IMG/VR virus record: IMGVR_UViG_2526164661_000012
Source: a virus
Taxonomy: Duplodnaviria > Heunggongvirae > Uroviricota > Caudoviricetes
Strand: one strand, 5' to 3'
Length of the DNA stretch: 40,486 nt
The first letter of the stretch is position 1, and each line of letters opens with the position of its first letter. Under the pieces are notes generated by a model, which did not search any database, was not told the DNA's origin, and saw only the letters and a program-made list of their open reading frames with translations. Below are positions 30,486 through 31,657 of this stretch, in pieces. Both the position numbers and the translations under genes were made by a program.

Positions 30486-31657
30486 ATGGCTCAGGATTAC
30501 CACCACGGGGTGCGCGTTGTTGAAGTCAACGAAGGCACCCGATCCATTACCACGGTGAGCACTGCCATCGTGGGTATGGTATGCACGGGCGATGATGCCG
30601 ATGCAAAAATGTTTCCTCTTAATAAACCCGTGCTGATCACTGATGTGCTGACTGCCAGCGGTAAAGCGGGTGAGTCAGGCACGCTGGCTCGTTCGCTGGA
30701 TGCCATCGCTGACCAGGCAAAACCCGTGACCGTTGTTGTGCGTGTGCCGCAGGGTGAAACGGAAGAAGAAACCACGACCAATATCATCGGAGCAGTGACC
30801 GCTGAAGGTAAAAAACAGGCATGAAAGCCCTGTTATCTGCCCAGTCACAGCTCGGCGTTAAACCGCGCATTCTCGGCGTGCCAGGTCACGACACGAAGGC
30901 GGTAGCTACTGAGTTGCTGAGCGTGGCGCAAAGCCTGCGTGGATTTGCTTACCTGTCAGCGTATGGTTGCAAGACGGTGCAGGAAGCAATCACTTACCGT
31001 GAAAACTTCAGTCAGCGTGAAGGAATGCTGATCTGGCCCGACTTTACTGGCTGGGACACGGTGCTGAATGCCGAAGCAACGGCTTATGCCACCGCCCGTG
31101 CGCTTGGTCTGCGCGCCAAAATTGACGAGCAGACCGGATGGCACAAAAGCCTGTCCAACGTGGGCGTTAACGGTGTCACCGGAATTTCTGCTGATGTGTT
31201 CTGGGATCTGCAGGACCCGGCAACCGATGCGGGACTGCTGAACCAGAACGACGTCACCACCCTTATCCGCAAAGACGGTTTTCGCTTCTGGGGTTCCCGC
31301 TGCCTGAGTGATGACCCGCTCTTTGCCTTCGAAAACTACACCCGCACGGCGCAGGTGCTGACGGACACGATGGCAGAAGCGCACATGTGGGCGGTGGATA
31401 AACCGCTGAATCCGTCGCTGGCCCGCGACATTATCGAGGGTATCCGCGCCAAAATGCGCAGCCTGGTCAGTCAGGGCTATCTCATTGGTGGTGATTGCTG
31501 GCTGGATGAGTCGGTGAACGACAAAGACACGCTGAAAGCCGGAAAACTCACCATCGACTACGACTACACGCCAGTGCCGCCACTTGAAAACCTGATGCTG
31601 CGTCAGCGCATCACCGATCAGTACCTGGTGAATTTCTCCAGCCAGGTCAGCGCGTAA
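30486..31657 (+). pseudogene. FI: Tail sheath protein gpFI-like, split by frameshift in an A6 run
   Basis: Track ORFs 30486..30824 ([19 protein letters not shown]...) and 30821..31657 in different frames; both halves match P2 FI by recall; adding one A to the run at 30810..30815 gives ...[28 protein letters not shown]... Confidence 0.85.

Follow-up and report, generated by a model that had tools for sequence, protein, structure and literature searches.

The tail sheath gene (FI type) of a P2-family prophage in Escherichia coli DEC10E is written in the draft genome as two open reading frames (ORFs), which meet just downstream of a run of six A residues (A6). This run is very probably a homopolymer undercall in the DEC10E draft, the gene being intact in the bacterium; the split is not regarded as a real biological feature. 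The initial annotation had set a real frameshift, in a prophage unable to build a contractile tail, against an artefact in a prophage that is probably functional. That framing holds, and it is the artefact that is favoured by the seven-A run (A7) of clonal siblings, by seven further deletions and by the sister drafts of the same project.

The window, that is, the whole stretch of DNA that was analysed (40,486 nt), is 100 % identical to contig AIGT01000013.1 of GCA_000250075.2, the 2012 draft of E. coli DEC10E. In an exact look-up against the whole protein collection, a 378-aa TnpC fragment encoded in the window was found in one contig only, AIGT01000013.1. GCF_000250075.1 corresponds to DEC10E, an O26:H11 stx1 eae isolate from a calf (PMC7693793).

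The interrupted sheath gene and the adjacent insertion sequence

The features of the sheath gene as it is written in the window are as follows.

30486..31657, plus strand: tail sheath gene (FI type), two ORFs as written (112 aa and 278 aa)
30486..30824, plus strand: first ORF of the sheath gene, 112 aa, C-terminus AEGKKQA*, match to Pfam Gp18_domIII_N
30821..31657, plus strand: second ORF of the sheath gene, 278 aa, start MKALL, matches to Pfam Phage_sheath_1 and Phage_sheath_1C
30810..30815, plus strand: A6 run where the apparent -1 frameshift lies; clonal siblings and the matching complete E. coli genomes of RefSeq have A7

The text at 30801-30824 reads GCT GAA GGT AAA AAA CAG GCA TGA, with the stop codon at 30822-30824, and the missing A interrupts the sheath ORF after codon 110. 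Addition of one A after 30815 generates a 390-aa ORF with full-length identity to WP_000046140.1, the intact sheath protein of NZ_CP070914. The split is thus present in the text where the initial annotation had placed it, and the rejoined reading proposed there, with one extra A, was correct.

Both halves had also been described as matching the sheath protein of P2. The three Pfam sheath domains occur in the correct order across the two ORFs (Gp18_domIII_N, E-value 3.7e-12; Phage_sheath_1, 2.2e-31; Phage_sheath_1C, 1.6e-23), and these are the domains of the P2-family FI sheath. The nearest relatives are P2-family phages rather than P2 itself; the sheath of the isolated Escherichia phage Cartapus (P2-family/Peduoviridae), for example, has 99 % identity to the repaired window sheath. 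The gene heads an operon in the order FI-FII-E/E'-T-U-D, followed by ogr. Downstream are genes for the tube (PF04985), a chaperone (PF10109), GpE, a tape measure protein of 1025 aa, GpU, GpD and an Ogr_Delta protein, and this order (sheath, FII, E/E', tape measure, U, D, Ogr) is likewise that of the P2 family. The P2-family FI sheath gene is continuous, whereas that of the window, as written, is interrupted and contains no single ORF of approximately 390 aa.

An alternative reading is that the split is functional, with programmed -1 ribosomal frameshifting or transcriptional slippage joining the two ORFs. Slippage of Lys-tRNA on A-runs is known in E. coli, and a -1 slip on T AAA AAA C, as read from the sequence, restores the wild-type GKKTGM exactly. 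The two-ORF form is not conserved, however, essentially all relatives having a continuous 390-aa ORF, nor does the A-run make up a complete X XXY YYZ heptamer when read in the zero frame. Folding of the next 75 nt gave a minimum free energy of -17.5 kcal/mol, no lower than in shuffled sequences (mean -19.5, z = +0.70). An inefficient slip is also implausible for a structural protein needed at many copies per virion. Programmed frameshifting was rejected on the lack of conservation of the split form and of a stimulatory RNA structure, and a functional split of either kind is hardly credible.

Upstream of the sheath gene there is an insertion sequence.

27789..30328, minus strand: ISEc47 (IS66 family), 2.54 kb, GTAAGCG terminal repeats, between the invertase and sheath genes
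27781-27788 and 30329-30336: 8-bp target duplication AATGAATC flanking ISEc47
30392..30409, plus strand: TGT-N12-ACA dyad TGTGTGAATAACGGTACA, a sequence match only, between the end of the IS and the start of the sheath gene

The element has the tnpA-tnpB-tnpC arrangement, the GTAAGCG ends and the 8-bp duplication of the IS66 family, and shares 99.9 % identity with annotated ISEc47. Its insertion point falls within the final codons of the invertase gene, and the sheath ATG follows 157 bp downstream. Read from the window without the element, the invertase would end in ...NESP*; with the element it ends in ...NES*, with loss of the final Pro. The insertion is taken to be real because five sibling assemblies (PGBJ01, JXBV01, SRR254190, AIHL01 and AIHM01) share it. 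The TGT-N12-ACA dyad presumably represents an Ogr/Delta binding site like those of P2 late promoters. Its location between the IS and the sheath gene suggests that the late promoter is probably retained and that the late operon is probably still expressed.

Homopolymer deletions in the window and in sister drafts

The 187-aa invertase allele made by the IS insertion is common to PGBJ01, JXBV01, the Logan assembly of SRR254190, AIHL01 and AIHM01. JXBV01 is E. coli C691-71 (14b), and AIHL01 and AIHM01 are drafts of the DEC project. A Logan SRR254190 contig starting at the IS junction was compared with the window at 30301-38743 (8,444 nt); there were no mismatches and one gap, which is the A7 of SRR254190 against the A6 of the window, and the SRR254190 sheath has 390 aa. 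CAJSUY01, which contains the same prophage without the IS and differs from the window by a single SNP over 6.3 kb, also has A7 at the sheath run. Look-ups with gpD and the fibre found the sheath intact in all assemblies shown except the drafts AFDV01 and AIGT01. The sheath contig of JXBV01 probably groups with an intact-sheath locus (L022), although the evidence for this is indirect. Within the window's clone, A6 is seen only in the DEC-project drafts AIGT01 and AIHL01, with A7 in SRR254190 and CAJSUY01; it is not an allele common to independently sequenced clonal relatives, which would mark a genuine pseudogene. These comparators belong to the same clone but need not be the same isolate, and the A7 of DEC10E itself is inferred from them.

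The possibility that SRR254190 represents DEC10E's own reads was considered but is not supported. The terminase large-subunit sequence of the window is found nowhere else in the collection, and since this private allele occurs only in AIGT01, SRR254190 was counted as a clonal sibling only. The difference lies at position 14799, where the window has C and the six sibling assemblies all have G; either DEC10E carries a private substitution here or the draft is in error at this base.

Approximately 38 kb of the window was compared with the nearest non-DEC relatives. Few substitutions were found, together with eight one-base deletions in the window and no insertions. All eight deletions are inside homopolymers; one is that of the sheath gene at 30810, and the other seven are listed here.

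1673..1678: T6, T7 in non-DEC siblings; truncates a 201-aa gene
2326..2333: T8, T9 in non-DEC siblings; splits a 349-aa gene (DUF4747 annotation in sibling records)
4748..4753: A6, A7 in siblings; alters the Fil gene
5684..5688: A5, A6 in all siblings; Dam methylase gene reduced from 284 aa to 246 aa
21925..21930: A6, A7 in five non-DEC assemblies; breaks a 268-aa DUF6216 gene between S and V
26892..26898: C7, C8 in PGBJ01, JXBV01, Logan SRR254190, AIHM01 and others; breaks a 243-aa alternative fibre gene in the invertible segment
28346..28349: T4, T5 in intact ISEc47 and in the same-site copy of AIHM01; tnpC split into 378 aa and 183 aa

Comparison with JXBV01 over window positions 1-17682 reveals two substitutions alongside the deletions at 1673, 2326, 4748 and 5684, and comparison with PGBJ01 over 16659-27843 reveals one substitution alongside those at 21925 and 26892. 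Against intact ISEc47 copies, the deletion at 28346 is accompanied by two substitutions (the copy in L012) or one (the same-site copy of AIHM01). The deletion rate in the window is about 1 per 4-5 kb, and six of the 18 runs with a true length of at least 7 are short by one base. The 172-aa ORF at 21325-21843 had no exact match in a look-up, because the deletion at 21925 breaks the 268-aa gene. A shorter rimK (262 aa), just beyond the window in the source contig, was considered as a further error and rejected, there being no indel behind it.

The DEC project itself provides a control. When four DEC drafts and three assemblies produced by other projects were aligned over the left 17.7 kb, three pairs had no substitutions between their members (AIHL01/JXBV01, AIHM01/DADSNU01 and AIHN01/JBNDCI01). 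One-base homopolymer deletions number four or five in each DEC draft and are absent from the twins, giving totals of 17 in the four DEC drafts and 0 in the three others. AIHL01 and JXBV01, for example, differ over 18,373 aligned nt by four deletions and no mismatches. Several deletions common to DEC drafts run against the SNP grouping: all four have T8 at 2326, and both AIGT01 and AIHN01 have A6 at 4748. The changes therefore track the sequencing project and not descent. AIHL01 also has an A6 sheath, a split tape measure gene and an IS66 element in five pieces, yet shows no mismatches against SRR254190. The discrepancies are all one-base changes in homopolymers, and none occurs in the independent SNP-identical assemblies.

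Defects of mismatch repair strongly raise homopolymer indel rates, and with all eight changes of the window in homopolymers it could be proposed that DEC10E and its sister strains are mutators whose deletions are real. All four drafts would then need to come from mutators, while SNP-identical twins have none of the deletions. Mutators also yield insertions and many transitions, neither of which is seen, and the deletions in common contradict the SNP tree and follow the project. The twin assemblies thus speak decisively against a history as mutators, and the probability left to it is very small.

A homopolymer undercall in the draft is the best explanation of these observations. In the sequencing or consensus step of the DEC10E project, about one in three runs of at least 7 bases would have been shortened by one base. 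At the sheath gene, A7 would have been reported as A6, generating a false stop and two ORFs in the text in place of the single 390-aa gene of the cell. The other apparent frameshifts of the window would have the same origin, and the ISEc47 insertion would be the only real structural change near the sheath gene. With so many of the long runs short by one base, a true A7 run would itself be expected to yield an A6 call.

The error pattern suggests a pyrosequencing-like or 454-type error mode. As in pyrosequencing-era drafts and others from flow- or signal-based methods, the errors in the window are one-base deletions in runs of 5 to 9 and affect longer runs more often. As in other drafts with homopolymer errors, they track project rather than phylogeny and are absent from other SNP-identical assemblies. 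For a finished consensus, a rate of about 1 undercall per 4-5 kb, with about a third of runs of at least 7 affected, is high.

The A6 allele in other genomes

Among the full-length RefSeq matches listed, all have 1173 bases against the 1172 of the window. The 91 bp surrounding the A6 run matched 864 RefSeq records (complete E. coli genomes), none of them at 99 % identity or more, and the A6 version is thus carried by none of them. In the large protein collection WP_000046140.1 is the commonest intact sheath allele, in at least 1000 contigs, and the exact 112-aa fragment is found in 69 contigs, in varied prophage backgrounds and attachment sites.

Several A6 carriers also show homopolymer indels elsewhere, in core genes (ybjL A8 to A9, ybjM G3 to G2, invertase T6 to T5). 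Judging by accession prefix, 7-8 of the ten A6 carriers shown are presumably 2010-2012 drafts or long-read assemblies. We take GL884207, GL871807, ADUK01, AFDV01 and AIGO01, by their prefixes, to be drafts of those years. CP121673 and CP042645, which have other homopolymer indels, are on the same basis presumed to be long-read assemblies. The sheath A-run has been miscalled repeatedly, in older assemblies and in noisy ones. In a metagenome contig (L031) the run is A8.

One lineage is of a different kind. In JBRSWZ01, DAJPOI01, JAHCWG01 and JBRTUZ01, which are essentially identical here, a P2-like prophage has the same A6 allele at the same site as the window, together with a 4-bp deletion in the tape measure gene at the site corresponding to window position 34505, which generates a 648-aa truncation. 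This prophage is probably genuinely decayed, because several recent independent assemblies are identical there. In that lineage A6 is supported by several independent recent assemblies and is accompanied by a lesion outside homopolymers, whereas the siblings of the window's clone have A7 and the window's deletions are in homopolymers only.

The A6 of DEC10E could be a real mutation generated by replication slippage, the sheath gene then being a pseudogene and the prophage unable to make contractile tails. A7 runs are natural slippage sites, the JBRSWZ01 lineage has apparently inherited a real A6, one metagenome contig has A8, and DEC10E, with at least one private substitution, is not identical to its siblings. 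Against this, siblings with the same IS and no mismatches across 8.4 kb show A7. A real origin would also demand eight independent one-base deletions against few substitutions, with no insertions, nonsense mutations or indels outside homopolymers. The 17 deletions of the DEC drafts against none in their SNP-identical twins, and the undercalling of about a third of the long runs, under which a true A7 is expected to be called A6, make such a mutation very unlikely. If the frameshift were true, it would represent ordinary prophage decay.

The occurrence of A6, A7 and A8 in public assemblies could also be read as a hypermutable switch at the sheath A-run, with DEC10E truly in the off (A6) state. 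Such a switch would allow lysogens to silence tail production reversibly, the prophage being kept as a non-lytic resident; this reading is very unlikely indeed.

The prophage as a whole

The window contains a P2-family prophage that runs from the integrase at position 1 to ogr; beyond it are the chromosomal genes ybjL and ybjM. On the left, relatives have rcdA next to the prophage, which places the element at rcdA/ybjL. An invertible segment and three cargo slots are distinguished.

25694-27173: invertible tail-fibre segment, 33-nt inverted repeats at 25694-25726 and 27141-27173, 88 % complementary
1143-2799: cargo slot int/cI, encoding proteins of 201 aa and 349 aa
10535-12865: cargo slot between a DinI-like gene and the portal gene, encoding a 176-aa protein and a 360-aa protein with a weak Peptidase_M48 match
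21325-22130: cargo slot S/V, encoding a DUF6216 protein

The fibre segment is in the opposite orientation in JXBV01, SRR254190, AIHM01 and AIHL01, giving a fibre of 580 aa against 463 aa; inversion must therefore have taken place within the clone, even though the IS lies at the end of the invertase gene. A 9-bp in-frame indel, CACGCTGGA, is present in the tail-fibre gene at 25332-25340 in comparison with a close relative, AFDV01 (STEC_DG131-3). The same cargo slots are occupied in relatives by other cargo, for example genes for a TIR-domain protein and an AIPR protein. When the window's cargo genes were scanned with PADLOC and Pfam, no match to a defence system was obtained.

The late region apart from the sheath gene had been described as intact. 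As a statement about the text this is wrong, since ISEc47 occupies 27789-30328 and pseudo-frameshifts occur at 21925 and 26892; for the organism it is close to right. The initial annotation is thus partly supported in its interpretation.

When the undercalls are corrected, every gene of the window matches the intact versions in the siblings. The DEC10E prophage is probably intact apart from the IS, and functional. If the sheath split is an undercall, as is considered very probable, it is uninformative as to whether the prophage works. With approximately one false frameshift per 4-5 kb in homopolymers, calls of pseudogenes and of defective prophages from the DEC drafts are unreliable.
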